Of a stretch of DNA of 9,215 bases, positions 108 to 9,215 are shown piece after piece. Source of the DNA: a virus (lineage: Duplodnaviria > Heunggongvirae > Uroviricota > Caudoviricetes). Location: the IMG/VR virus record IMGVR_UViG_2703719355_000010; one strand, 5' to 3'. The position numbers were made by a program, and so were the translations under genes. The stretch's first letter is position 1. Every line of letters starts with the position of its first letter. A model generated the notes under the pieces. It was not told the DNA's origin. It worked only from the letters and a program-made list of their open reading frames with translations, and did not search any database.

Positions 108-197
108 GTCTGCGCCGCGCTGCGTGAGTTGAACAAGCACAGGGATATTGTACGACAGATTACTGATTCTTCCCGCCATGTTGCATCGGAAAAGTGA
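108..197 (+). pseudogene. 3' remnant (29 codons) of a gene interrupted by the IS; its position just upstream of the ren-like gene suggests the tail of a replication (P-like) gene
   Basis: Open frame begins at the IS boundary (VCAALRELNKHRDIVRQITDSSRHVASEK) and stops at TGA 195-197, 15 nt before the next gene's ATG. No start codon of its own. Identity is inferred from position only. Confidence 0.3.
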
Positions 198-212
198 TTG
201 CCGGAGGCGCTT

Positions 213-605
213 ATGGCAAAAGTATTTACACAAGAAGAGCGGGAAGAAGTGAAGGCGCGCATTGTGGAATTCGTGCGCCTGAGCGGACGAGAAACTTTTC
301 GACAACTGGCAGATAAAACGGGTGTCAGTAAGACCGCTATTCGTCGTTTATCTGGTGCGCTTGCGGCCAGTGGTGATGTCTGGCTCTCTGGTTGCGGGGT
401 ATTTCCATCAGAGCAGGCGTATCGCGTATGGCGTAAGACACCGGAGAAGGCTGCTGACCCGACACTGATTCGAAAGTTACCTGACGGAGAAATACGTCGT
501 TACAACAGACGGCAGAACATAATTTGTCGTGAGTGCCGCCAGAGCGAAGTTATGCAGCGTGTGCTGGCGTTCTATCGGGGAAACTTTCAGGAGGTGATGT
601 TGTGA
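213..605 (+). CDS. Ren-like protein, 130 aa (N-terminal HTH-like region, C-terminal ECRQS...RVLA motif resembling lambda Ren)
   Basis: ATG at 213 preceded by GGAGG at 203-207. C-terminal IICRECRQSEVMQRVLAFYRG resembles my recollection of lambda Ren (KECRQSAAMKRVLAVYG). Stop overlaps the start of the next gene. The ORF-track start at 198 is a TTG and less likely. Confidence 0.5.
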   Translation: MAKVFTQEEREEVKARIVEFVRLSGRETFRQLADKTGVSKTAIRRLSGALAASGDVWLSGCGVFPSEQAYRVWRKTPEKAADPTLIRKLPDGEIRRYNRRQNIICRECRQSEVMQRVLAFYRGNFQEVML

Positions 606-1075
606 GTGAGTCGGCTACCATTCTCGACATGTGCTGTGGCAGTCGCATGTTCTGGTTTGATAAGAATGACGAACGGGCGATATTTAGCGATATCAGAAAA
701 GAAGAGCACACATTGTGTGATGGACGACGCCTGATTATCAGTCCTGACCTGATAGCAGATTTTCGAGCATTACCATTTGCAGACGCATCGTTTCCGGTTG
801 TTGTATTCGACCCTCCGCATCTTGAGCGTGTTGGTGATAACGCCTGGATGGGAAAGAAATATGGACGGCTGAATAAAGATACCTGGCGAGATGATTTGCG
901 GCAGGGATTTAAAGAAGCCTTTCGTGTGTTGTGCCCACGCGGCGTTCTGATTTTTAAATGGAATGAAACGCAAATACCTGTTCGCCAGATATTGGTACTG
1001 ACCGACAGAAAACCTGTTATCGGTCAACGAACAGGAAAAAACGATAAAACCCACTGGATTATTTTTATGAAATAG
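602..1075 (+). CDS. Small phage-type DNA N6-adenine methyltransferase, 157 aa
   Basis: GTG at 602 with AGGAGG 8-13 nt upstream, overlapping the previous stop. SAM-binding-like LDMCCGSRMF near the N-terminus and catalytic motif VVFDPPH (DPPY/DPPH class). Size fits the small phage Dam-like family. Preferred over the upstream ATG at 533, which has no RBS and would overlap the Ren-like gene by about 70 nt. Confidence 0.7.
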   Translation: MSESATILDMCCGSRMFWFDKNDERAIFSDIRKEEHTLCDGRRLIISPDLIADFRALPFADASFPVVVFDPPHLERVGDNAWMGKKYGRLNKDTWRDDLRQGFKEAFRVLCPRGVLIFKWNETQIPVRQILVLTDRKPVIGQRTGKNDKTHWIIFMK

Positions 1076-1323
1076 GCATCCAGTGAGTAGGTTCGTAAGG
1101 TTACAGATGCGTATATCTGAATAATTAAATTCAGTTCTGTAAATAAAATTTAATCCTTAACCGGAGGGATTCCTGCACCCTCAGAACATCAGGAGACCGC
1201 CCGAAAGGGCGGTAATGAAAAATGGCTGAATGAACCAAATGGCTACAAAACACGATTACCGGAATTGAAACGGTAGTAGACGATAAATCGTTTGTATGTG
1301 ATGAAATAGTATTCAAAATCGAT

Positions 1324-1689
1324 GTGGTTAAAAACGTACTTACCGCATTTAAAGTCGCGCTGGTATCGCTGGAAGCCGAACCGGTGACATGGCGATATCG
1401 CTACGTGAGAAAAGGCGTTACGAACTTTCAGGAGAAGCCGTGGGTTGGTGACTGGAAATATGTACCGACAAAAGAGGATTGCAACGACAGGCCGAACTAT
1501 GAAATTCAGGCGTTATTCACGGCCCAGCCTGTGCCACTGACACCCGAAGGATTGATTAAAGCGGTGCGCTTCTATGAACAGGTTAAGAGTGAAAATCCGC
1601 CAGTCGAAACCGGAGCATGGAAAGACGCTGTTGACTGGGTGCTCAAAGAGGCTTGTCAGGCTGTAAACATTGGCATCAAAGGAGAGTGA
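1324..1689 (+). CDS. Hypothetical phage protein, 121 aa
   Basis: Uninterrupted ORF on the same strand as its neighbours, ending 1 nt before the next gene's ATG. Start is uncertain (GTG at 1324, no clear RBS). Shares the motif AL-x-SLEA-(D/E)-PV with the N-terminal region of the 1885..3306 protein. Confidence 0.45.
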   Translation: MVKNVLTAFKVALVSLEAEPVTWRYRYVRKGVTNFQEKPWVGDWKYVPTKEDCNDRPNYEIQALFTAQPVPLTPEGLIKAVRFYEQVKSENPPVETGAWKDAVDWVLKEACQAVNIGIKGE

Positions 1690-1690
1690 G

Positions 1691-1882
1691 ATGAACGGAC
1701 AAATCTCAATTGTTCGACCGGGAGCATGTGACGATTGCGAGATACGAATGATTATTCGTCTGGCGATGGGGAAAACAATAACTGCTCTCATTACTCCAGA
1801 AAATCTCGCATTAGCATTAACAGGAAAGTCAGACCTGCCAGTAGAGCTAAAGCTGCGAAATGTTGAGATTAAGGTGAAATAG
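1691..1882 (+). CDS. Hypothetical small protein, 63 aa
   Basis: ATG at 1691 with GGAG 6 nt upstream; stop is 2 nt before the next ATG (tight, operon-like packing). No family recognised. Confidence 0.5.
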   Translation: MNGQISIVRPGACDDCEIRMIIRLAMGKTITALITPENLALALTGKSDLPVELKLRNVEIKVK

Positions 1883-1884
1883 CT

Positions 1885-3306
1885 ATGACCACTATTACCA
1901 AAGAGCGACTGCTGACAATCAAGCAGTGGCGCGAAACATACGGACCTGGTAGCAACGTTGTACTGCCAGCAGAAGAAGCGGAAGAACTGGCACGGATTGC
2001 ACTGGCATCATTGGAAGCAGATCCAGTTAAACGAGTTAACTCAGATCAGATGCACCGAGTCTGCTTAGAAGCTAATCGCTATTTAGATAAATATGACGCG
2101 ATGGCGAAAGAGGTAAATAAGTTGCTTGGACGCATCGCCCCGCCAGCGCCAGTATTTAACGGCGAATACGGTGACGCATATCAGGGCGCTCGTGAAGACC
2201 TGTCCATCTGGAAACGGCGAGCGCTTGAAGCTGATGAGCACGTTCGGCGACTGGAGCAAATCAATGACCACATGGTGAAAGAGGCGCAGGGAGAATCACG
2301 CATGGGCGAGCCTGTAATACGTGAGCCAGCACCGGTAGTGCCTGAAGAAGCAACTCCGGAAAACGTAGAAATGCTCTCTGGCTATGTTTCAACGTACAAA
2401 TTAACCGATAGCGAGCGCGATATTGCTGCCGAAATATGGAACGCCTGCCGCGCCGCCATGCTTCAGTCAGGAAACTTTCGGGAAAACAAGAATTCGTCAA
2501 CCAATAATTTTCGGGAAATCGAGGAAACGTCAACCAACTATCCGGCAATTCCTAGTGAGGTGTTGTCCGCAATCCTGAAGGTTGCCAGGATTCGTGCCGA
2601 TTTCGATGATTTTGACGGTGACAGGCGAGGTATCGGTGATTGTCTGGATGAGGCTGAGCAAGAGCTTATCGTTACCATTAACAAATATGCCAGTCAGTTG
2701 GCAGCAGAACCGATAGCGACTAATGACGTTCGAGAGCAGCAGACAGCCGTTCCGCCAGTTCCGGAAATACAGGCTGATGTCGCGCAAGCAATTGAAAATC
2801 TCAAGCAGAAGCTAGTGGAATGTAATCGCTATAACTACTGCGCAGATGCAGTTAAAGGCGTAGAGGATGCCTGCCGTGCTGTTAGCTATAGCCAAGCCGA
2901 CAATCAACCAGCATCTGGCAACCAGGCTGCCGAATCCAATCGCGGTAATGAGTGGACTGGCAATCCTGATATTGATAACGCCATCATCATGCTCGACCGC
3001 ATAGATACGCTGGAAAATTGCGATGATGACCGTATTGAGGCTGTTAAGGCTGTTTTGCGTAGACTGGCTGGCAACTATCCGGTAACTCCGGATGGTTGGA
3101 TAAGCTGTAGTGAGCGAATGCCGAATACCAAAACAGCCGTTCTTGTTGCCGTGGAGTTTGACAGGAAAGGTGACTGGCGAATGAAATGGGCTACTTACAT
3201 CCCGGGGCATCCTGACGCTAATGATGGGTGGATAATTCCTGGTGCGTCGTGGAAACCGTCACACTGGATGCCGCTACCAGAACCGCCGCAGGAGGTGCGC
3301 CAATGA
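1885..3306 (+). CDS. Large phage protein, 473 aa, with C-terminal DUF551-like domain (Eaa/Ea22-type moron protein)
   Basis: Long ORF with ATG at 1885. C-terminal 70 aa (DGWISCSERMPNTKTAVLV...GWIIPGASWKPSHWMPLPEPP) resemble the DUF551 domain common at the C-terminus of enterobacterial prophage proteins. Contains an internal 33-nt imperfect tandem repeat. Confidence 0.65.
   Translation: MTTITKERLLTIKQWRETYGPGSNVVLPAEEAEELARIALASLEADPVKRVNSDQMHRVCLEANRYLDKYDAMAKEVNKLLGRIAPPAPVFNGEYGDAYQGAREDLSIWKRRALEADEHVRRLEQINDHMVKEAQGESRMGEPVIREPAPVVPEEATPENVEMLSGYVSTYKLTDSERDIAAEIWNACRAAMLQSGNFRENKNSSTNNFREIEETSTNYPAIPSEVLSAILKVARIRADFDDFDGDRRGIGDCLDEAEQELIVTINKYASQLAAEPIATNDVREQQTAVPPVPEIQADVAQAIENLKQKLVECNRYNYCADAVKGVEDACRAVSYSQADNQPASGNQAAESNRGNEWTGNPDIDNAIIMLDRIDTLENCDDDRIEAVKAVLRRLAGNYPVTPDGWISCSERMPNTKTAVLVAVEFDRKGDWRMKWATYIPGHPDANDGWIIPGASWKPSHWMPLPEPPQEVRQ
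2473..2538. repeat. In-frame imperfect tandem duplication (2 x 33 nt) inside the 473-aa gene
   Basis: aactttcgggaaaacaagaattcgtcaaccaat followed by aattttcgggaaatcgaggaaacgtcaaccaac, encoding NFRENKNSSTN / NFREIEETSTN. Confidence 0.6.
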
Positions 3307-3386
3307 TCTGGCCTGAAGCCTTTGCAATTACAGGCGTTGCTATAGCTATTGATTTTTTAGTATATGTTATTTGTCGGTGGGGGTAA
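3303..3386 (+). CDS. Candidate small hydrophobic peptide, 27 aa
   Basis: ATG at 3303 overlaps the stop of the upstream gene (ATGA), suggesting translational coupling. Product MIWPEAFAITGVAIAIDFLVYVICRWG is mostly one hydrophobic helix. Too short for the supplied ORF track. Confidence 0.3.
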   Translation: MIWPEAFAITGVAIAIDFLVYVICRWG

Positions 3387-3421
3387 AAACGTTCGCCGGG
3401 ATTCACACCAAAGGAGGGAAT

Positions 3422-3526
3422 ATGTCGGATGATATTTCACTGGCAATGGAAGGTGCGCTGGCTGTTATTGCTGTTGTGGGCGTTTACTGCCTGGTTGTGT
3501 TTTTGATGGATCGACTAGGGAACTGA
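3422..3526 (+). CDS. Candidate small membrane peptide, 34 aa
   Basis: Strong RBS AAGGAGGG 4 nt upstream of ATG 3422. Product MSDDISLAMEGALAVIAVVGVYCLVVFLMDRLGN has an acidic N-terminus and a single predicted transmembrane helix. Too short for the supplied ORF track. Confidence 0.45.
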   Translation: MSDDISLAMEGALAVIAVVGVYCLVVFLMDRLGN

Positions 3527-3535
3527 ATTCATTAC

Positions 3536-3555
3536 GATATGGGAATTCCCATATC
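3536..3555. promoter_or_regulatory. 20-bp perfect palindrome GATATGGGAATTCCCATATC; candidate operator for a dimeric DNA-binding protein
   Basis: Perfect dyad symmetry read directly from the sequence, about 35 bp upstream of the predicted hok-locus promoter. No U-tract on either strand, so not an intrinsic terminator. Confidence 0.4.
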
Positions 3556-3567
3556 GGGTAAAAACGG

Positions 3568-3596
3568 TTTGCGGTAAAGCGAGAGTTAAGTAGAAT
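3568..3596 (+). promoter_or_regulatory. Candidate promoter of the hok/mok mRNA (-10 TAGAAT at 3591-3596, weak -35 around 3568-3574)
   Basis: A -10 hexamer TAGAAT lies 5 nt before position 3601, where the sequence that base-pairs with the mRNA 3' end begins. Confidence 0.4.
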
Positions 3597-3714
3597 TGCT
3601 GCGGGTGCTTGAGGCTATCTGCCTCGGGCATGCCACCGTAAGGCAGACAGAGAAAAGCCCCAGTTAACATTACGCGTCCGGCAAGACGCTTAACATTAAT
3701 CTGAGGCCATATCT

Positions 3715-3927
3715 ATGACTTGCACATGTAGGTTAGCCTCTTACGTGCCGAAAGGCAAGGAGAAGCAGGCTATGAAGCAGCAAAAGGCGATGTTAATCGC
3801 CCTGATCGTCATCTGTTTAACCGTCATAGTGACGGCACTGGTAACGAGGAAAGACCTCTGCGAGGTACGAATCCGAACCGGTCAGACGGAGGTCGCTGTC
3901 TTCGTAGACTACGAATCTGAGAAGTAA
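3715..3927 (+). CDS. mok: Mok-like reading frame: in-frame N-terminal extension of hok (70 aa)
   Basis: ATG at 3715 in frame with hok, mirroring the mokC/hokC arrangement I recall, where the mok frame governs hok translation. Confidence 0.55.
   Translation: MTCTCRLASYVPKGKEKQAMKQQKAMLIALIVICLTVIVTALVTRKDLCEVRIRTGQTEVAVFVDYESEK
3772..3927 (+). CDS. hok: Hok/Gef-family type I toxin, 51 aa
   Basis: Product MKQQKAMLIALIVICLTVIVTALVTRKDLCEVRIRTGQTEVAVFVDYESEK is near-identical in pattern to HokC/Gef as I recall it (MKQHKAMIVALIVICITAVVAALVTRKDLCEVHIRTGQTEVAVF...). RBS AAGGAG is 9 nt upstream. The predicted mRNA 5' end (3601-3614) pairs with the 3' end (3977-3991), the fold-back arrangement typical of hok mRNAs. 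Confidence 0.85.
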   Translation: MKQQKAMLIALIVICLTVIVTALVTRKDLCEVRIRTGQTEVAVFVDYESEK

Positions 3928-3994
3928 GAGACCAGGCGGGGGAGTAATCTCCCGCCACCTCTGATGTGTCAGGCATCCTCAACGCACCCGCACT

Positions 3995-4020
3995 AAACCC
4001 GCTTCGGCGGGTTTTTTGTT
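3995..4020 (+). terminator. Intrinsic terminator at the end of the hok transcript
   Basis: Hairpin ACCCGC-TTCG-GCGGGT followed by TTTTTTGTT. Confidence 0.75.
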
Positions 4021-4202
4021 GCGTGCTGAATGCGCAGGGTGAAAAATAACCATATATTTGATTATATACACAACAAAAAATAAAAGTCATTGTACCTGCA
4101 CATTAAATAATCAAATATACAGCGTGAAATAAATATTTTTCAGATTAATATTTTTGTCTCTATGTGGATATAACCGTTTGTACTTATAAACTCGGAGGCA
4201 TC

Positions 4203-4415
4203 GTGGAAAAAATAAAGAAACTATTTAGTTGCAAATACGCAGTCATACGTCGTGATGACCTGTCAGTTATAGTCGAAATGGATTACTTCCCTGAAACCCC
4301 AAAATCAATGATGTATCGTAATGGTCGAAAGGCAATTTTTTTACCGATGAGGGTAAGTGACATTATGGGAAATGATAAACTGCTGGATGAATTGCGAGTC
4401 AGAGCATCCTGTTAG
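4203..4415 (+). CDS. Hypothetical protein, 70 aa, encoded in an AT-rich island (moron-like)
   Basis: GTG at 4203 with GGAGG 4 nt upstream. Preceded by about 180 bp of very AT-rich sequence directly after the hok terminator. No family recognised; start uncertain (track ORF begins at GTG 4164). Confidence 0.4.
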   Translation: MEKIKKLFSCKYAVIRRDDLSVIVEMDYFPETPKSMMYRNGRKAIFLPMRVSDIMGNDKLLDELRVRASC

Positions 4416-4486
4416 TATTGGCATTAATTCTGGTATACTACATAACGGGCTGAACACCCATTCTACTGCGCCAGCGGAGAACTACG

Positions 4487-5086
4487 ATGGCGCATATACA
4501 ACTGGTCAAACAAACCTCTTCCGGATTACTTCTCCCGGCGACACCGGAGAGTTGCGATTTTTTGCATCAAATCAAAATAGGCGAGTGGATACACGCAGAC
4601 TTTAAGCGTGTGCGTAACTACGCATTCCACAAGCGTTTTTTCAAACTCCTGCAACTGGGATTCGATTACTGGACTCCGGTCGGTGGGGCGATCACGCCTC
4701 GCGAACGAGAACTGCTGTCTGGTTTCGTTGATTACCTGTGCGAATCAGTTGGTCGGGAACACACGCCAGCCCTGAGTGATGCCGCAGAGCAATATCTGAA
4801 TACAGTTGCGACACGCAGAACCCGGGATACGGCATTGTTAAAGTCGTTTGAGGCTTTTCGCGAGTGGGTAACCATTCAGGCTGGATTTTACACCGAACAT
4901 TTTTATCCGGACGGTAGCCATGGGCGTCGGGCGAAATCCATCGCTTTTGCGAATATGGACGAAACCGAGTTTCAGCAGGTTTATAAATCTGTTCTGAATG
5001 TGCTGTGGAACTGGATTCTGTTCCGTAAATTTTCCTCTCCGGAACAAGTCGAAAATGTGGCCGCGCAGCTGCTGGAGTTTGCGTAA
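4487..5086 (+). CDS. Lambdoid nin-region protein, 199 aa (DUF1367-like)
   Basis: ATG at 4487; stop overlaps the next start (TAATG). Size and position immediately upstream of a YbcO-like gene and Q fit the DUF1367 family; assignment is by recollection and gene context. Confidence 0.6.
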   Translation: MAHIQLVKQTSSGLLLPATPESCDFLHQIKIGEWIHADFKRVRNYAFHKRFFKLLQLGFDYWTPVGGAITPRERELLSGFVDYLCESVGREHTPALSDAAEQYLNTVATRRTRDTALLKSFEAFREWVTIQAGFYTEHFYPDGSHGRRAKSIAFANMDETEFQQVYKSVLNVLWNWILFRKFSSPEQVENVAAQLLEFA

Positions 5087-5376
5087 TGGTGGATTTACGT
5101 AAAGCGGCGCGGGGGCAGATGTGCACCGTCAGAATTCCTGGCTACTGCAATCACGATCCGGAAACGTCTGTGCTGGCGCATTACCGACTGGCGGGAACGT
5201 GCGGAACAGCGATAAAGCCACACGATATGCAGGCAGCGATTGCCTGTAGCTCGTGCCATGATTTAATCGACGGGCGGGTAAAAACCGGCGATTACACCAA
5301 AGAAGAATTACGCCTGATGCATGCAGAAGGTGTTTTTCGCACACAAGAAATCTGGAGAAAGGAGGGATATTTATGA
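5086..5376 (+). CDS. YbcO-like protein, 96 aa (DUF1364, putative metal-binding nuclease)
   Basis: Product MVDLRKAARGQMCTVRIPGYCNHDPETSVLAHYRL...IACSSCHDLIDGR closely follows the pattern of DLP12 YbcO as I recall it (LRKAARG...C.VRIPG.CN..PETSVLAH.RL...IACS.CHD.ID), including the conserved Cys/His positions. Overlapping start and stop with both neighbours. Confidence 0.75.
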   Translation: MVDLRKAARGQMCTVRIPGYCNHDPETSVLAHYRLAGTCGTAIKPHDMQAAIACSSCHDLIDGRVKTGDYTKEELRLMHAEGVFRTQEIWRKEGYL

Positions 5377-5927
5377 TTTACCCAACGAATACAGGAAAAA
5401 GCGGAGAACACCTTCGTCTCACCACGCTGGAAAGTGTCTGGATTCAGGGAAAACTACGTATGTGGGGGCGCTGGTCGTATATTGGCGGCGGTAAGACGGG
5501 AAATATGTTTAACCAGTTGCTGACCTCTAAAAAGCTAACAAAAACGGCAATTAATGAGGCGCTCCGGAGGATGAAAAAAGCAGGTCTGGACAAACCTGAA
5601 CTTGAGGCTTTTTTGCGGGATATGATCAACGGCAAGCAAAAAAGCTGGCTGGTGCATTGTACTGATGCAGAGGCGTTATGCATTGATCGGGTGATTAGTG
5701 AAGTGCTGGCAGAACACCCAGGATTGATTTGTATCCTCCGGCAAAGATATGAAGGGCGGGGGATGAGTAAGCGCAAAATGGCTGAATTGCTAAATGATGC
5801 ACACCCTGAGTGGTGTTTTCGGACGTGCTGCAGTCGGGTAGATGTATGGCTAAATCTTGCTGAATATATGCTCTATCTGCCGATGCGTGATGCATTCTCT
5901 TCCGGGTATTTAAAAACTGTCTGTTGA
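5373..5927 (+). CDS. Putative late-gene antiterminator Q (non-lambda Q family), 184 aa
   Basis: ATG at 5373 with GGAGGG 6 nt upstream. Sits in the Q position: downstream of nin-type genes and immediately upstream of a strong promoter plus short-transcript terminator. An N-terminal W-G-x-W motif resembles what I recall of Q82/QuuD-type proteins. Family not verified. Confidence 0.55.
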   Translation: MIYPTNTGKSGEHLRLTTLESVWIQGKLRMWGRWSYIGGGKTGNMFNQLLTSKKLTKTAINEALRRMKKAGLDKPELEAFLRDMINGKQKSWLVHCTDAEALCIDRVISEVLAEHPGLICILRQRYEGRGMSKRKMAELLNDAHPEWCFRTCCSRVDVWLNLAEYMLYLPMRDAFSSGYLKTVC

Positions 5928-5953
5928 CTCAATCTGTTATCCGGGGCTATATT
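5924..5953 (+). promoter_or_regulatory. Candidate late promoter (PR'-like): -35 TTGACT at 5924-5929, 18-nt spacer, -10 TATATT at 5948-5953
   Basis: Near-consensus sigma-70 hexamers overlapping the Q stop codon, followed by a hairpin at 5961-5978 (CGCCAG-CAAAAT-CTGGCG) in the initially transcribed region, as expected around a Q-utilisation/pause site. Confidence 0.5.
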
Positions 5954-6015
5954 CCTCACGCGCCAGCAAAATCTGGCGTCGGGATTAGGAACCCCGGATA
6001 GAGACCGCGACAGAC

Positions 6016-6040
6016 ACACGCCGCGAGCGTGTTTTTTATT
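6016..6040 (+). terminator. tR'-like intrinsic terminator downstream of the late promoter
   Basis: Hairpin ACACGC-CGCGA-GCGTGT followed by TTTTTATT, about 60-80 nt downstream of the predicted start site, analogous to the lambda PR'-tR' short transcript. Confidence 0.55.
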
Positions 6041-6200
6041 GTCGTATGCACGCGCACATCTGAATTATGGTGGGGCGTATGGGGGAGCTGAAAAGCTCGC
6101 CGGTTGGTTTCCCGGTAGTTCCTAACCCTGTACGTCTCACCACCCGATGATTAGGAACCTGACGGTGGTGATGGTTTAGAAACCACCAGAGGGCGTCATT

Positions 6201-6782
6201 ATGACAACTCAAATTTCTGTTGAAACTCTCTCCCCGATCACCCATAACCAGATTCCTGTTATTACCACCGAACTTTTGGCGCAGTTGTACGGTGCTGGAG
6301 TTAAGAACATTCAAAATAACTACGCCAGAAATGCTGAGCGCTTTATTGAAGGAAAGCATTTTTTCAAAGTGGCTGGCGATGCCCTGAAAAATTTGCGGGT
6401 AGCTTTAAACTACTCACAAAATTTGCAACTATCTTTAAGAGGGTTACAAATTTCCCCGAAAGCCCGCTCCCTCATCCTCTGGACAGAACGCGGAGCAGCC
6501 CGTCATGCCAAAATGCTGGAAACCGATCAGGCGTGGGATGTGTTCGAAAAGCTGGAAGACTGCTATTTCAGACAAAAGGATCCGTCAGCGCCAGTTTCAT
6601 GCCAGAAAAGTTACGACACGCGAGTTCTCTGTTATCAGAGAGGCGGTGTCACTGTTTCCACAATTCAGTTACGGGATGATGATATTGTTATTTCCCTTGA
6701 GTCATGGCTGGAACTGGCGAGAGCCAATGGTTGGTTTGTTGTTCGCAGAGATAAACTGGTGGAAAGGTTGATGCAGCTTTAA
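6201..6782 (+). CDS. ORF6N-domain protein (KilA-N-related, antirepressor-like DNA-binding domain), 193 aa
   Basis: N-terminal LLAQLYGAGVKNIQNNYARNAERFIEGKHFFKV matches the ORF6N signature I recall (LAELYG...N.AVKRN.ERFPEDFMF). ATG at 6201 with a GAGGG RBS. Confidence 0.65.
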   Translation: MTTQISVETLSPITHNQIPVITTELLAQLYGAGVKNIQNNYARNAERFIEGKHFFKVAGDALKNLRVALNYSQNLQLSLRGLQISPKARSLILWTERGAARHAKMLETDQAWDVFEKLEDCYFRQKDPSAPVSCQKSYDTRVLCYQRGGVTVSTIQLRDDDIVISLESWLELARANGWFVVRRDKLVERLMQL

Positions 6783-6879
6783 AAAAGTTCTTGCATTTTT
6801 GCACATAAACTGCTTCAATTCCTGTATGCTTCGCAAAGCTGTATCGCGAGGCGAAACGCAAGTTTTTTTCGCACAAGGA

Positions 6880-6902
6880 AGCCACCGGAAGGTGGTTTTT
6901 TT
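6880..6902 (+). terminator. Intrinsic terminator after the ORF6N gene
   Basis: Hairpin CCACC-GGAA-GGTGG followed by seven T residues. Confidence 0.65.
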
Positions 6903-7025
6903 GTGTCCGTAATATACAGCAGCGCAATAAATTCGCTGGTGGTTATTAATACCGTTCTTTCAGCTTGCTGGCTTTTTCGACAAGAGTTATTGGTATGTCA
7001 CGTTAACCGGAAAGGGTAAAAAGAC

Positions 7026-7223
7026 ATGCTGAAACAGCAGGATATGACAGAAACCGCCAGAGTTGTGTTTGATGAATTAAGCGTTACCGAACCGGCGACA
7101 GTCGGGGAGATTGCGCAGAATACTTACCTTTCACGCGAACGCTGCCAGTTAATACTGACCCAGCTGGTTATGGCGGGTCTGGCAGACTATCAGTGCGGTT
7201 GTTACAGACGCATTCAGTCCTGA
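7026..7223 (+). CDS. Small winged-helix regulatory protein, 65 aa (PapI/FaeA-like)
   Basis: TVGEIAQNTYLSRERCQLILTQLVMAGLA resembles the PapI/FaeA pattern I recall (TAEIAEAL.VT.YQAR.YLL.LEKAG). Start could be ATG 7026 or the internal ATG at 7041. Confidence 0.45.
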   Translation: MLKQQDMTETARVVFDELSVTEPATVGEIAQNTYLSRERCQLILTQLVMAGLADYQCGCYRRIQS

Positions 7224-7256
7224 AGGCTTTTTATTTGTGGTAAATGGGCGGCTGGT

Positions 7257-7265
7257 GGGGGGGGG
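7257..7265. repeat. Homopolymeric G9 tract in the intergenic region upstream of the AraC-family gene
   Basis: Nine consecutive G residues read directly, about 30 bp upstream of a candidate promoter (TTGATG at 7294-7299, TATAAT at 7319-7324). Confidence 0.9.
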
Positions 7266-7359
7266 CGGCACCTGTCAGTCCTTTGCTTATGTGTTGATGA
7301 TAATTTACCTTTTGGGGCTATAATTGAGCTAACCAATTGCTAATGAAAGTAAAATTATA

Positions 7360-8073
7360 ATGGCTGTTGTCTGTTCAGTTATCATGGTTTGCTCCCCAAT
7401 TAATATTTTTCTTGAAAAGGATACGTTGTCACTTAAGCCAGGCTCAGTCGTTCTGGCCACCAAATGCATCAGGGAGCTTTTCCTTATGCATTATGGCAAA
7501 GTTAAAATTGTCGATATAAGCGAATCCGTCGTAAGTCAATATCTGGAAAGTCAGCATAAGCTGACGAGGACTCGTCTGACTGACATTCCGCTTTACCTGT
7601 TGCTGGAACCCAACAATCCTGCGTTGGCTGCGGCTTTAATTACCAGCCAGGGATTTTCCGGAGAGGTCACGGATATGTTTCTTATGATGGCCTGCCTGTC
7701 TCTGTTTGAAACAGATGAACGGATGTCATTGTTTTTAAGTGGATGTTTATCCAGCATAAGTGCCAAAGTCAGGGCGATAATTCAGACAGATATATCAGCA
7801 AGCTGGACGCTTGGTGCGATTGCTCTACAGTTGCATATGAGTGAGAGTTTGTTAAAGACAAAACTGAAAAATGAAGGGGGCATGTTCAGTCGCTTGTTGC
7901 TGGAAGAGCGGATGCGTGTTGCTGTAAATATGTTATGTTCCCGACATGGATATGGACAGGCTGTAGCAGAAAAATGCGGTTATTCAAGCAGGTCCTACTT
8001 TATTTCTGTATTTCACCGCTATTATGGCTTCCCGCCAGACAGATATGTATCCAGGCAAGGGCTTGATTATTGA
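7360..8073 (+). CDS. AraC/XylS-family transcriptional regulator, 237 aa (prophage-encoded; PatE/Psr-like class)
   Basis: The C-terminal 100 aa carry the tandem HTH signature of the AraC family (...SRSYFISVFHRYYGFPPDRY). Start codon is uncertain: ATG 7360, 7387 and 7486 are all in frame and none has a strong RBS. Confidence 0.8.
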   Translation: MAVVCSVIMVCSPINIFLEKDTLSLKPGSVVLATKCIRELFLMHYGKVKIVDISESVVSQYLESQHKLTRTRLTDIPLYLLLEPNNPALAAALITSQGFSGEVTDMFLMMACLSLFETDERMSLFLSGCLSSISAKVRAIIQTDISASWTLGAIALQLHMSESLLKTKLKNEGGMFSRLLLEERMRVAVNMLCSRHGYGQAVAEKCGYSSRSYFISVFHRYYGFPPDRYVSRQGLDY

Positions 8074-8101
8074 TTTTCATCTGATTATTATTTTTTGGCT
8101 C

Positions 8102-8177
8102 GGCCCTTTAGCTCAGTGGTGAGAGCGAGCGACTCATAATCGCCAGGTCGCTGGTTCAAATCCAGCAAGGGCCACCA
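8102..8177 (+). tRNA. tRNA with anticodon CAU; sequence pattern of tRNA-Ile2 (lysidine type, ileX-like) rather than tRNA-Met
   Basis: Cloverleaf folded by hand: acceptor GGCCCTT/AAGGGCC, D-stem GCTC/GAGC, anticodon loop CTCATAA, T-loop TTCAAAT, encoded CCA. Close to my recollection of E. coli ileX. Confidence 0.8.
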
Positions 8178-8178
8178 A

Positions 8179-8255
8179 CCGCCACTAGCTCATCAGGAAA
8201 GAGCGTCAACCCTTTAAGTTGAGTGTGCGAGGTTCGAGTCCCCGGTGGCGGTCCA
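8179..8255 (+). tRNA. Atypical tRNA or tRNA-like gene; anticodon loop CCTTTAA (nominal anticodon UUU, Lys) with C instead of U at position 33 and an unusual D-loop
   Basis: 7-bp acceptor stem CCGCCAC/GTGGCGG, T-loop TTCGAGT, encoded CCA, 5-bp anticodon stem TCAAC/GTTGA. Deviations: 5' C, D-loop ATCAGGAAA, C33, one A-C mismatch in the T-stem. May be a degenerate or specialised tRNA. Confidence 0.5.
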
Positions 8256-8257
8256 GT

Positions 8258-8333
<76 letters not shown>

Positions 8334-8336
8334 TAT

Positions 8337-8411
<75 letters not shown>

Positions 8412-8417
8412 GTTAGA

Positions 8418-8463
8418 GTCTTTCAGTCTGCGATGATGGGAAATCCCGGAGTGACTGAAAGAC
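8418..8463 (+). repeat. Perfect 11-bp inverted repeat (GTCTTTCAGTC / GACTGAAAGAC) with a 24-nt loop, immediately after the tRNA array
   Basis: Read directly; no U-tract follows, so not a canonical terminator. Possible processing, structural or binding site. Confidence 0.5.
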
Positions 8464-8470
8464 GTTTAGG

Positions 8471-8543
8471 TTATGAATGATCGCTTTTTTTTGCAAAATT
8501 GCTGTGCAGAAATACTAACCTTCGGGCAGGCGATCATTCATAA
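8471..8543 (+). repeat. Perfect 14-bp inverted repeat (TTATGAATGATCGC / GCGATCATTCATAA) separated by 45 nt
   Basis: Read directly; the loop contains a T8 run. Could form a long stem-loop in RNA or be a protein-recognition or recombination site. Confidence 0.5.
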
Positions 8544-8618
8544 GCACTCTGCTTTTATTCCGATTAACTGTGGGTGGTTTGTTGGATAGAGTGCTTTCCT
8601 GACTGTAGATCCAATTTC

Positions 8619-8644
8619 GCCCGCTTTTGCGGGCTTTTCTTTTC
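8619..8644 (+). terminator. Intrinsic terminator upstream of the holin gene
   Basis: Hairpin GCCCGC-TTTT-GCGGGC followed by TTTTCTTTTC. Confidence 0.7.
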
Positions 8645-8703
8645 AAATCCCTTTCATCTCTCAGTGTAAAACTACGCCATCCGTTATTTGCGGAGGTGAG
8701 GCT

Positions 8704-8919
8704 ATGAAATCCATGGACAAAATTTCAACGGGCATTGCCTACGGCACCTCCGCAGGCAGTGCTGGCTACTGGTTTTTACAGTGGCTTGATCAAGTCAGTC
8801 CGTCACAGTGGGCTGCGATTGGTGTACTGGGGAGTCTGATTCTGGGCTTCCTGACTTATCTGACAAATCTGTACTTCAAAATCAGAGAAGACAAGCGTAA
8901 GGCTGCACGGGGAGAGTAA
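8704..8919 (+). CDS. S: Class II holin / pinholin of the phage 21 S type (S21-like), 71 aa, with dual-start motif
   Basis: Product [71 protein letters not shown] matches my recollection of S21 almost residue for residue, including the Met1/Met4 dual start (MKSM). GGAGG RBS 7 nt upstream. Confidence 0.85.
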
Positions 8920-8923
8920 TTCA

Positions 8924-9148
8924 ATGACTCAAAACTATGAAGTGATTGTGAAAGGGATCCGCAATTTTGAGAATAAAGTTACGGTAACTTTAGCGTTACG
9001 GGACAAAAAACGCTTTGACGGTGAAATTTTTGACCTGGACATCTCGCTGGACCGTGTTGAAGGTGCCGCGCTGGAGTTTTATGAGGCAGCAGCCAGAAGG
9101 AGCATCAGTGAACCGCCCCGGGTTTCCTGGAGAGTGTTTTATCTGTGA
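8924..9148 (+). pseudogene. Gene of unknown function truncated by the right-hand IS; the first 61 codons are native and the last 13 (EPPRVSWRVFYL plus stop) come from the IS end
   Basis: ATG 8924 with GGAGAG RBS. The reading frame crosses the IS boundary at 9109 and terminates inside the IS terminal repeat. The native N-terminus (MTQNYEVIVKGIRNFENKVTVTLALRDKKRF...) is not a recognisable endolysin. Confidence 0.45.
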
Positions 9149-9215
9149 ACTCAGGCTGCCAGATCATCGTTTCCGATGGAAGCATAATAAGCTTTTTCTG
9201 CTTCTGCCGGAGGAG
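9109..9215 (-). mobile_element. Right-end fragment of a second copy of the same IS3-family element in inverted orientation; the element continues to the right of the window
   Basis: Exact reverse complement of 1..107; begins at 9109 with TGAACCGCCCCGGGTTTCCTGGAGA. Confidence 0.7.
9151..9215 (-). CDS. IS3-family transposase C-terminal fragment, partial (mirror of 1..65)
   Basis: Same frame as the left copy read on the minus strand; stop codon at 9151-9153. Confidence 0.5.
   Translation of the reverse strand, partial: PPAEAEKAYYASIGNDDLAA

Follow-up and report, generated by a model that had tools for sequence, protein, structure and literature searches.

What are three closely packed genes with no assigned role doing in the early region of an Escherichia coli prophage? 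The question is raised by IMG/VR record IMGVR_UViG_2703719355_000010, a 9,215-nucleotide (nt) stretch of Caudoviricetes DNA (hereafter the window), in which positions 1324-3306 hold open reading frames (ORFs) of 121, 63 and 473 amino acids (aa), termed here genes 1, 2 and 3. A reading made from the letters of the window alone (the sequence-only reading) had pointed to a slot in which lambdoid phages often carry exclusion or anti-defence genes. Comparison with phage and bacterial genomes indicates that the block is very probably a commonplace cassette, composed of interchangeable protein modules, that many lambdoid and P22-like phages carry among their non-essential early genes. The window itself is a piece of an E. 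coli lambdoid prophage with insertion sequences (IS) at both flanks, and its block is an ordinary mosaic member of this known and very common cassette in which the first gene has been inactivated.

The tight packing seen in the sequence-only reading, with spacers of 1-2 nt, was confirmed and is the conserved layout of the cassette. The TGA stop of gene 1 (1687-1689) is followed after 1 nt by the ATG of gene 2 at 1691, and the TAG of gene 2 (1880-1882) after 2 nt by the ATG of gene 3 at 1885. The same order of an Ea22-type gene, a 63-aa ORF, and an EaA-like DUF551 protein recurs in four sampled phages, mEp460, ZX5, JLK-2012, and 1720a-02, with the spacing of the middle gene to its neighbours identical in each. 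GenBank labels the third gene EaA or EaA-like in ZX5 and 1720a-02. In mEp460 an Ead_Ea22 protein ending in ...IGVKGK is followed after 1 nt by a 63-aa ORF as in the window and, after a further 2 nt, by a DUF551 protein whose N-terminal module (N-module) is of the gene-1 type. The cassette, whose carriers include Stx phages, varies in location between the exo-xis and nin regions; it adjoins NinX in the Uetakevirus ZX5 and lies in the exo-xis region of JLK-2012. In another E. coli prophage, homologues of genes 1 and 3 enclose a middle ORF of 62 aa that differs from gene 2, and this related block has an ead/Ea22-like gene on one side and xis/int on the other. In E. coli O111:H- strain 11128, a segment comprising the methyltransferase gene, gene 1, and gene 2 (window 620-1904, 97.6% identity) is found in an early-left context beside yfdQ/yfdR.

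On sequence and gene order, the prototype of the cassette appears to be eaD-eaI-eaA of phage P22, in which an Ea22/Ead-type gene with GIK(V)KGE at its C-terminus is likewise followed by a 63-64-aa ORF and then EaA. Order, sizes, and spacers match those of the window; gene 2 is unlike EaI, and gene 1 and EaD share a C-terminal tail only. In P22 EaA, an N-module (MTTITKERIELF...ELARIALASLDAE) leads through a variable middle part to DUF551 at the C-terminus (GNSPVIPGGWISCSERMP...HWMQLPDPPL); N-module, joint, and DUF551 end are as in gene 3. BLASTP aligns gene 3 residues 358-468 with EaA 212-316 (E=1.2e-12) and residues 1-159 with EaA 1-188 (E=1.1e-7). The comparison with Ea22/Eaa-type proteins put forward in the sequence-only reading was apt, as shown by this match to EaA (about 1e-12) and by the fusion of the gene-1 body to an Ead_Ea22 domain in homologues. 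The two cassettes differ in that gene 3 has 473 aa against 317 in EaA, with different middle modules, and in that gene 1 is truncated and lacks the Ead_Ea22 N-domain. Furthermore, the cassette is early-left in P22 but lies in the early-right (nin) arm in the window.

The end of gene 1 is a conserved gene boundary (ATCAAAGGAGAGTGA) which includes the ribosome-binding site (RBS) of the next gene. The tail it encodes also closes lambda Ea22 (GIRIKGE), P22 EaD (GIKVKGE), and, in E. coli 042, an unrelated protein of the XF1762 family. Conserved linkers at gene boundaries have long been noted in mosaic lambdoid genomes. The variety of the cassette results from recombination among related prophages, with visible break points at conserved joints within the proteins and at RBS-bearing gene boundaries between them. 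Among 5426 complete E. coli genomes, 3707 (about two thirds) carry some part of the block, at a median of 2 and a maximum of 12 places per carrying genome. The whole arrangement is present in only three of the 5426. Window positions 1100-3500, which span the block, are 100% identical to E. coli NZ_CP148401.1, and positions 108-9215 match the same genome at 99.9%.

Gene 1 is interrupted in the window. Upstream of the GTG start of the 121-aa ORF the same frame reads ATG (1222) GCT GAA TGA ACC AAA TGG, or MAE-stop-TKWLQNTITG. Its intact homologue P0121 has 155 aa, is 99% identical, and begins MAELTKWLQNT. At position 1232 the window has G where phage mEp460_4F5 and E. coli O111:H- 11128 both have T, giving TTA (Leu); this is the sole difference between 11128 and the window across 1140-1400. 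Over this interval, one of the records listed is 100% identical and 29 others are 99.6% identical with one mismatch, the mismatching base being identified in 11128 alone. The GTG at 1324 is not preceded by a Shine-Dalgarno sequence. Given the TGA at codon 4, the intact P0121, and the T at 1232 in relatives, the 121-aa ORF is therefore the remnant of a 155-codon gene inactivated by a TTA to TGA change. Readthrough or selenocysteine insertion at the TGA was considered and rejected for lack of support.

Gene 1 matches phrog_660 (E=1.5e-46), which PHROG labels "unknown function", and its body is fused to Pfam Ead_Ea22 in homologues P0141 and P0209; the PF13935 domain itself was found on P0141, a bearer of the gene-1 body. 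The homologue in O111:H- 11128 (L013 2583-2999) keeps Leu4 and ends early at 138 aa (...KDAVD), a second and independent truncation of gene 1. Just 5' of the ancestral ATG there is a G+C-rich hairpin (GACCGCCC-GAAA-GGGCGGT, 1195-1213), and an imperfect 17-nt tandem (1214-1244) overlaps the ancestral start. In E. coli 042, the segment 1148-1220 is conserved upstream of another gene as well.

The modular construction of the family is visible at the motif ALxSLEA(D/E)PV, which genes 1 and 3 share. The sequence-only reading had placed this motif near both N-termini; in the 121-aa ORF it is so placed only because the nonsense codon has removed 34 codons. In intact gene 1 the motif occupies residues 46-55, close to its position in the 473-aa protein, and the common allele of this copy is ALASLEAEPV, T1364 of the window being C in mEp460_4F5. 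BLASTP of gene 1 against gene 3 gives E=0.011, or 0.005 with the intact gene-1 homologue. Both proteins match phrog_660 (gene 3 at E=1.3e-16), phrog_60, and phrog_5117 over overlapping profile columns, so the similarity seen in the sequence-only reading is real.

Homologues, taken as the best 120 for gene 1 and the best 120 for gene 3, extend this picture. A regular expression for the motif matches 106 of the 120 gene-3 and 70 of the 120 gene-1 homologues, and 93 of the 120 gene-1 alignments start 2-3 residues ahead of it. Preceding the motif in the gene-1 homologues are unrelated N-modules (MTTITKER..., MTSITREQ..., MAELTKEW..., MTTFTDKE..., or a Pfam Ead_Ea22 domain). The MTTITKER type, which heads gene 3, is present on 21 of them, and N-modules are thus found on both body types. 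Conversely, nine gene-3 homologues match residues 1-48 at 90-96% identity, with the next aligned residue being 148 or 191, and several sampled E. coli DNA matches span only ~1885-2027, from the N-module to the last codons of the motif. In the AlphaFold2 secondary structure, which is of low confidence, a helix ends at the motif and a break follows. Judged from these alignments, the motif is a conserved peptide joint linking swappable N-modules to swappable bodies, and homology break points cluster there. Of the earlier suggestion that the two proteins have related N-terminal modules on different bodies, the part that stands is that they belong to one modular family whose N-modules are shared among homologues; in the window itself, the sequences of genes 1 and 3 upstream of the motif are not alike.

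The pairwise BLASTP value of just 0.011 and the clustering of break points could also be taken to mean that the resemblance arose by chance, or that the motif serves recombination at the DNA level and has no role in the protein. This is highly improbable, however, as both proteins place the motif on the same phrog_660 columns and it recurs in most gene-3 and gene-1 homologues. The two copies match at 22 of 29 DNA positions, and six of the eight identical residues are encoded by different codons, which indicates that the peptide and not a DNA site is under constraint. A pure DNA recombination signal was ruled out, the synonymous sites having diverged.

Gene 3 shows the same construction over its whole length (Table 1). 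Its alignments break recurrently at query positions (q) 48, 148, 293, and 399. Over its residues 1-332 it shares 99% identity with P0005, and over 148-473 it shares 96% with P0013; the 469-aa relative P0003 has the same layout and aligns with full coverage. PHROG matches are to phrog_14306 (7.7e-81), phrog_60 (1.8e-62), and phrog_660, all labelled "unknown function". As all the joints of gene 3 are present in intact proteins, a simple crossover accounts for it better than a novel fusion; the gene is an intact recombinant of two common forms, for which a single crossover in shared sequence suffices. PGAP instead splits it into three DUF551 fragments or pseudogenes (window 2050-2709, 3067-3136, and 3118-3306). 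This split probably reflects the use of shorter forms as reference proteins, because the frame of gene 3 is unbroken.

Table 1. Features of the window, with positions counted from its first letter (HSP, high-scoring segment pair; AF2, AlphaFold2).
Feature	Position	Strand	Remarks
Ancestral gene 1, 155 codons	1222..1689	+	Helical N-module, joint motif, body of Ea22-C-terminal-domain type
Derived TGA stop (TTA Leu4 to TGA)	1231..1233	+	Interrupts ancestral gene 1 at codon 4
121-aa ORF, GTG start	1324..1689	+	PGAP hypothetical WP_050575132.1; remnant 3' of the stop
Joint motif copy 1, ALVSLEAEPV	1357..1386	+	aa 12-21 of the 121-aa ORF
Conserved gene boundary	1669..1690	+	Encodes tail ...IGIKGE and stop; AAGGAG within it is the RBS of gene 2
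Gene 2, 63 aa	1691..1882	+	Intact; occupies the position of P22 eaI
Gene 3, intact EaA-like DUF551 protein, 473 aa	1885..3306	+	RBS AAGGTGA
N-module of gene 3, aa 1-48	1885..2028	+	Closes with the second joint motif
Joint motif copy 2, ALASLEADPV	1999..2028	+	aa 39-48 of the 473-aa ORF
Long-helix, coiled-coil-like module, aa 49-147	2029..2325	+	AF2 helices 53-84 and 94-134, low confidence
Optional insert, aa 92-147	within 2029..2325	+	PPAPV and EPAPV repeats at flanks; alignment gap; 31 HSPs start at q148
Helical module of gene 3, aa 148-196			
Doubled linker unit, 2 x 33 nt, aa 197-218	2473..2538	+	NFRENKNSSTN / NFREIEETSTN
Helical module of gene 3, aa 219-293			
Optional module, aa 294-398	2764..3078	+	Absent from 365-aa forms; 21 HSPs end at q293, 22 start at q399
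DUF551 module, aa 399-473	3079..3306	+	Near-invariant flanks PVTPDGWISCSERMP ... HWMPLPEPP, variable core
Inverted repeat, perfect, 107 nt	1-107 and 9109-9215		Ends of IS3-family IS1203 copies
Methyltransferase gene	533-1075		
hok/sok type I toxin-antitoxin locus	3603-3927		Rfam sok 110.6 bits; Pfam Hok/Gef E=1e-22
Small hydrophobic ORF, 27 aa (MIWPEAFAITGVAIAIDFLVYVICRWG)	3303-3386		ATG overlaps gene 3 stop (ATGA)
Small hydrophobic ORF, 34 aa	3422-3526		Annotated hypothetical
Palindrome, perfect, 22 nt, CGATATGGGAATTCCCATATCG	3535-3556		Interval between 34-aa ORF and sok-hok
Three RNA matches: a1/b1 targets of C4, isrK Hfq-binding RNA, C4 antisense RNA	5947-6782		
Four phage tRNA genes	8102-8411		First: tRNA-Met (CAT) by ARAGORN, tRNA-Ile in RefSeq; others Lys, Thr, Gly

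The PGAP fragments bear on the possibility that the block is decaying, non-functional DNA of a defective prophage, with gene 1 a pseudogene and the 473-aa ORF an accidental in-frame fusion. Such decay would account for the nonsense codon in gene 1 and its GTG restart without an RBS. It would also fit a window bracketed by IS1203 ends, with disrupted prophage genes near the block, and the rarity of the exact arrangement among complete genomes. On the other hand, gene 3 runs through 473 sense codons behind a good RBS, each of its joints is found in an intact protein (P0005 for q1-332, P0013 for q148-473, and P0003), and gene 2 is intact. Decay of the block as a whole is therefore considered rather unlikely, and the reading of it as a mosaic cassette with a broken first gene is preferred.

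The internal repeat of gene 3 was likewise found to be a family trait. Two units, 2473-2505 and 2506-2538, are in frame and identical at 26 of 33 nt, and the pair is the best tandem in the block, with none of 200 codon shuffles reaching its level. The sequence-only reading had described this in-frame repeat correctly but took it as a sign of recent slippage or recombination. The copy-number comparison it proposed argues against a recent event, with two diverged copies in 113 of the 120 gene-3 homologues, one in six, and three in one. In the 113 the first unit is NFRENKNSSTN-like and the second NFREIAETSTN-like. Since nearly all homologues carry the same diverged pair, it is not a product of recent slippage in the window; the doublet is the norm of the family and an old duplication of a linker, whose copy number does vary. 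The repeat unit runs on into N-Y-P-x-I-P, and an N(Y/S)PxxP turn also opens the DUF551 module as a direct repeat.

That the C-terminus of the large protein is DUF551-like, as first suggested from its sequence, was borne out by PF04448, which matches gene 3 residues 404-469 over profile positions 1-68 of 68 (E=1.3e-20, 74.5 bits against a cut-off of 22). Invariant alignment columns are W11, C14, R17, M18, P19, W67, L70, and P71-P74. The flank consensus, W-I-S-C-S-E-R-M-P at the N-terminal side and H-W-M-P-L-P-E-P-P at the C-terminal side, is present in gene 3 at both ends. Inside identical flanks, the otherwise close homologues P0001-P0120 carry at least 12 discrete and mutually unrelated cores. 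This pattern of flank and core looks cassette-like.

Gene 2 is found in 176 phage records and matches phrog_1222 over its full length (E=9e-41), again under the PHROG label "unknown function". A further profile, phrog_11564 ("DNA methyltransferase"), is matched by the methyltransferase of the window at profile positions 2-93 and by gene 2 at 83-117. As this profile spans both proteins, some phages seem to have a fusion or deletion joining the two genes.

Assigning a function to the cassette is more difficult. The genes are ordinary, conserved lambdoid genes whose motif similarity is not spurious, and a known function was not found for them. NCBIfam has no family for any of the three proteins, no PADLOC-DB 2.0 defence family reaches E<=0.01 with P0121, gene 2, or gene 3, and a sequence search of the PDB with the three proteins returned nothing meaningful (best E 0.48-0.87). 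AlphaFold2 models of the full 473-aa protein (71 homologues; predicted local distance difference test (pLDDT) 38, predicted template modelling score 0.21) and of the DUF551 domain (32 sequences; pLDDT 54) are interpretable for secondary structure only. Foldseek found nothing at E<1 in the PDB for the DUF551 model, which has a pLDDT of 54. Functional papers on EaA, EaD, or EaI were not found in the literature.

Better characterised relatives nevertheless provide an analogy. Ea22 is an early, mosaic, tetrameric, and pro-lysogenic protein for which a DUF551-bearing variant has been described, with experiments performed on lambda, phi24B, and P27 (PMC10834534, PMC7093339). Lambda Ea22 and the Stx-phage Ea22 variants V1-V3 resemble the proteins of the window in their modular plan, where a coiled coil comes after a short N-terminal part and the domain at the C-terminus can be swapped; variant V2 bears DUF551 (PMC10834534, PMC7093339). 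Lambda Ea22 also ends at the same type of gene boundary as gene 1. The tetramer and the pro-lysogenic phenotype were demonstrated with Ea22 itself. DUF551 (PF04448) is further shared with YfdS of the K-12 prophage CPS-53 and with VT2-Sakai orf4. In the latter, DUF551 is accompanied by an MTTFTDKE... N-module and a degenerate form of the joint (EIALTALTTEP); orf4 has an extra C-terminal domain, whereas gene 3 has extra helical modules. YfdS shares the prophage accessory context, with yfdQ/yfdR homologues adjoining in related loci. The phenotypes of YfdS, reported only for K-12, are H2O2 sensitivity and a contribution with YfdQR to hda-185 suppression; published work connects the protein with H2O2 tolerance and, jointly with YfdQR, with the inhibition of DnaA-dependent initiation.

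By analogy with Ea22, it is tentatively proposed that the cassette proteins act in an Ea22-like manner, a possibility that falls short of being probable. Each protein begins with a short helical N-module ending in ALASLEA(E/D)PV, followed by at least one helical or small beta module with proline-rich or low-complexity linkers (PPAPV, NFRExxxxSTN, N(Y/S)PxxP) and, optionally, a C-terminal DUF551 domain. The helical N-part would oligomerise and display the variable C-terminal domains, which would bind a host or phage partner and thereby adjust host physiology or the choice between lysis and lysogeny. The genes themselves are non-essential.

Several observations weigh against this proposal. The analogy with Ea22 is indirect because genes 1 and 3 lack an Ead_Ea22 match and lambda Ea22 is unlike gene 3: PF13935 did not match gene 1, P0121, or gene 3 at cut-offs of E<=0.1 or E<=0.01, and no sequence similarity was detected between lambda Ea22 and gene 3. 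Similarly, gene 2 equals P22 EaI in size but shows no detectable sequence similarity to it. The structural models (pLDDT 38 and 54) are too poor to serve as a test of an oligomer with displayed binding domains, and no functional data were found for EaA, gene 2, or DUF551. Lastly, with IS elements throughout the prophage and a broken gene 1, the block may have no activity in its source strain.

The position of the block invites a different proposal. The window begins with a Ren-like DUF977 gene and an S-adenosylmethionine (SAM) methyltransferase, followed by the block, two small hydrophobic ORFs, and hok/sok. Next come a NinB-like DUF1367 gene, DUF1364, a DUF1133 gene, the isrK/C4 RNAs, an ORF6N gene, and a helix-turn-helix gene, and finally four tRNAs and a holin. 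From this order the block is placed in the early-right arm or operon, with replication genes on one side and nin genes on the other, confirming the slot given in the sequence-only reading. It may be that the block is a superinfection-exclusion or anti-defence moron whose variable modules, chiefly the DUF551 core, stay diverse through an arms race against host defence systems or rival phages. The Ren-like gene, methyltransferase, and hok/sok in the same slot would fit this, as would the combinatorial diversity of DUF551 cores among 120 close homologues and the multiple places that carrying E. coli genomes devote to pieces of the block. However, PADLOC matches none of the three proteins, and no publication was found that ties DUF551, EaA, or Ea22 to a role in defence or anti-defence. 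The experimental phenotypes of relatives comprise only a lysogeny bias (Ea22) and oxidative-stress or DnaA effects (the yfdQRST cluster). Moreover, phage accessory genes typically show such mosaic diversity, and no arms race is required to explain it. This role is thus judged unlikely, and Ea22-like tuning of lysogeny or host physiology remains the favoured, if tentative, proposal.

A more speculative idea, regarded as less plausible still, is that EaA/EaD-type proteins are combinatorial, hypervariable effectors. Here the joints (ALASLEAEPV, PPAPV, N(Y/S)PxxP), together with the invariant flanks of DUF551, would serve as fixed "splice points" at which prophages swap binding cassettes, with diversity maintained by conflict with host defences or rival phages.

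Around the block, the 107-nt inverted IS1203 ends indicate that an inverted pair of IS elements encloses the 9-kb prophage segment; one of the two copies occupies another location in the closest genome. The RBS of the 27-aa ORF downstream of gene 3 (CAGGAGG) lies inside the conserved final PQEV codons of the gene 3 DUF551 module. Neither this ORF nor the 34-aa ORF has a convincing family match, and there is no T-run 3' of the 22-nt palindrome at 3535-3556. An Rfam scan found no RNA family within 1076-3306. A promoter and terminator scan of 900-4200 gave counts inside shuffle expectation and no + strand promoter upstream of the block. Directly 3' of the C4/isrK RNA matches, the ORF6N-domain gene weakly matches the PADLOC candidate PDC-S05 (E=2e-6).

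For annotation, the 473-aa ORF is to be treated as an intact EaA-like gene despite its PGAP fragments and the 121-aa ORF as a nonsense-truncated 155-codon gene, with the joint motif and the repeat read as family-wide linker features and not as local events. The block is a new combination of known and very common prophage modules which is already present in RefSeq genomes, and it carries little weight as a discovery. The family to which it belongs is strikingly modular and, with pieces of the block carried by roughly two of every three complete E. coli genomes, presents a fair experimental target.

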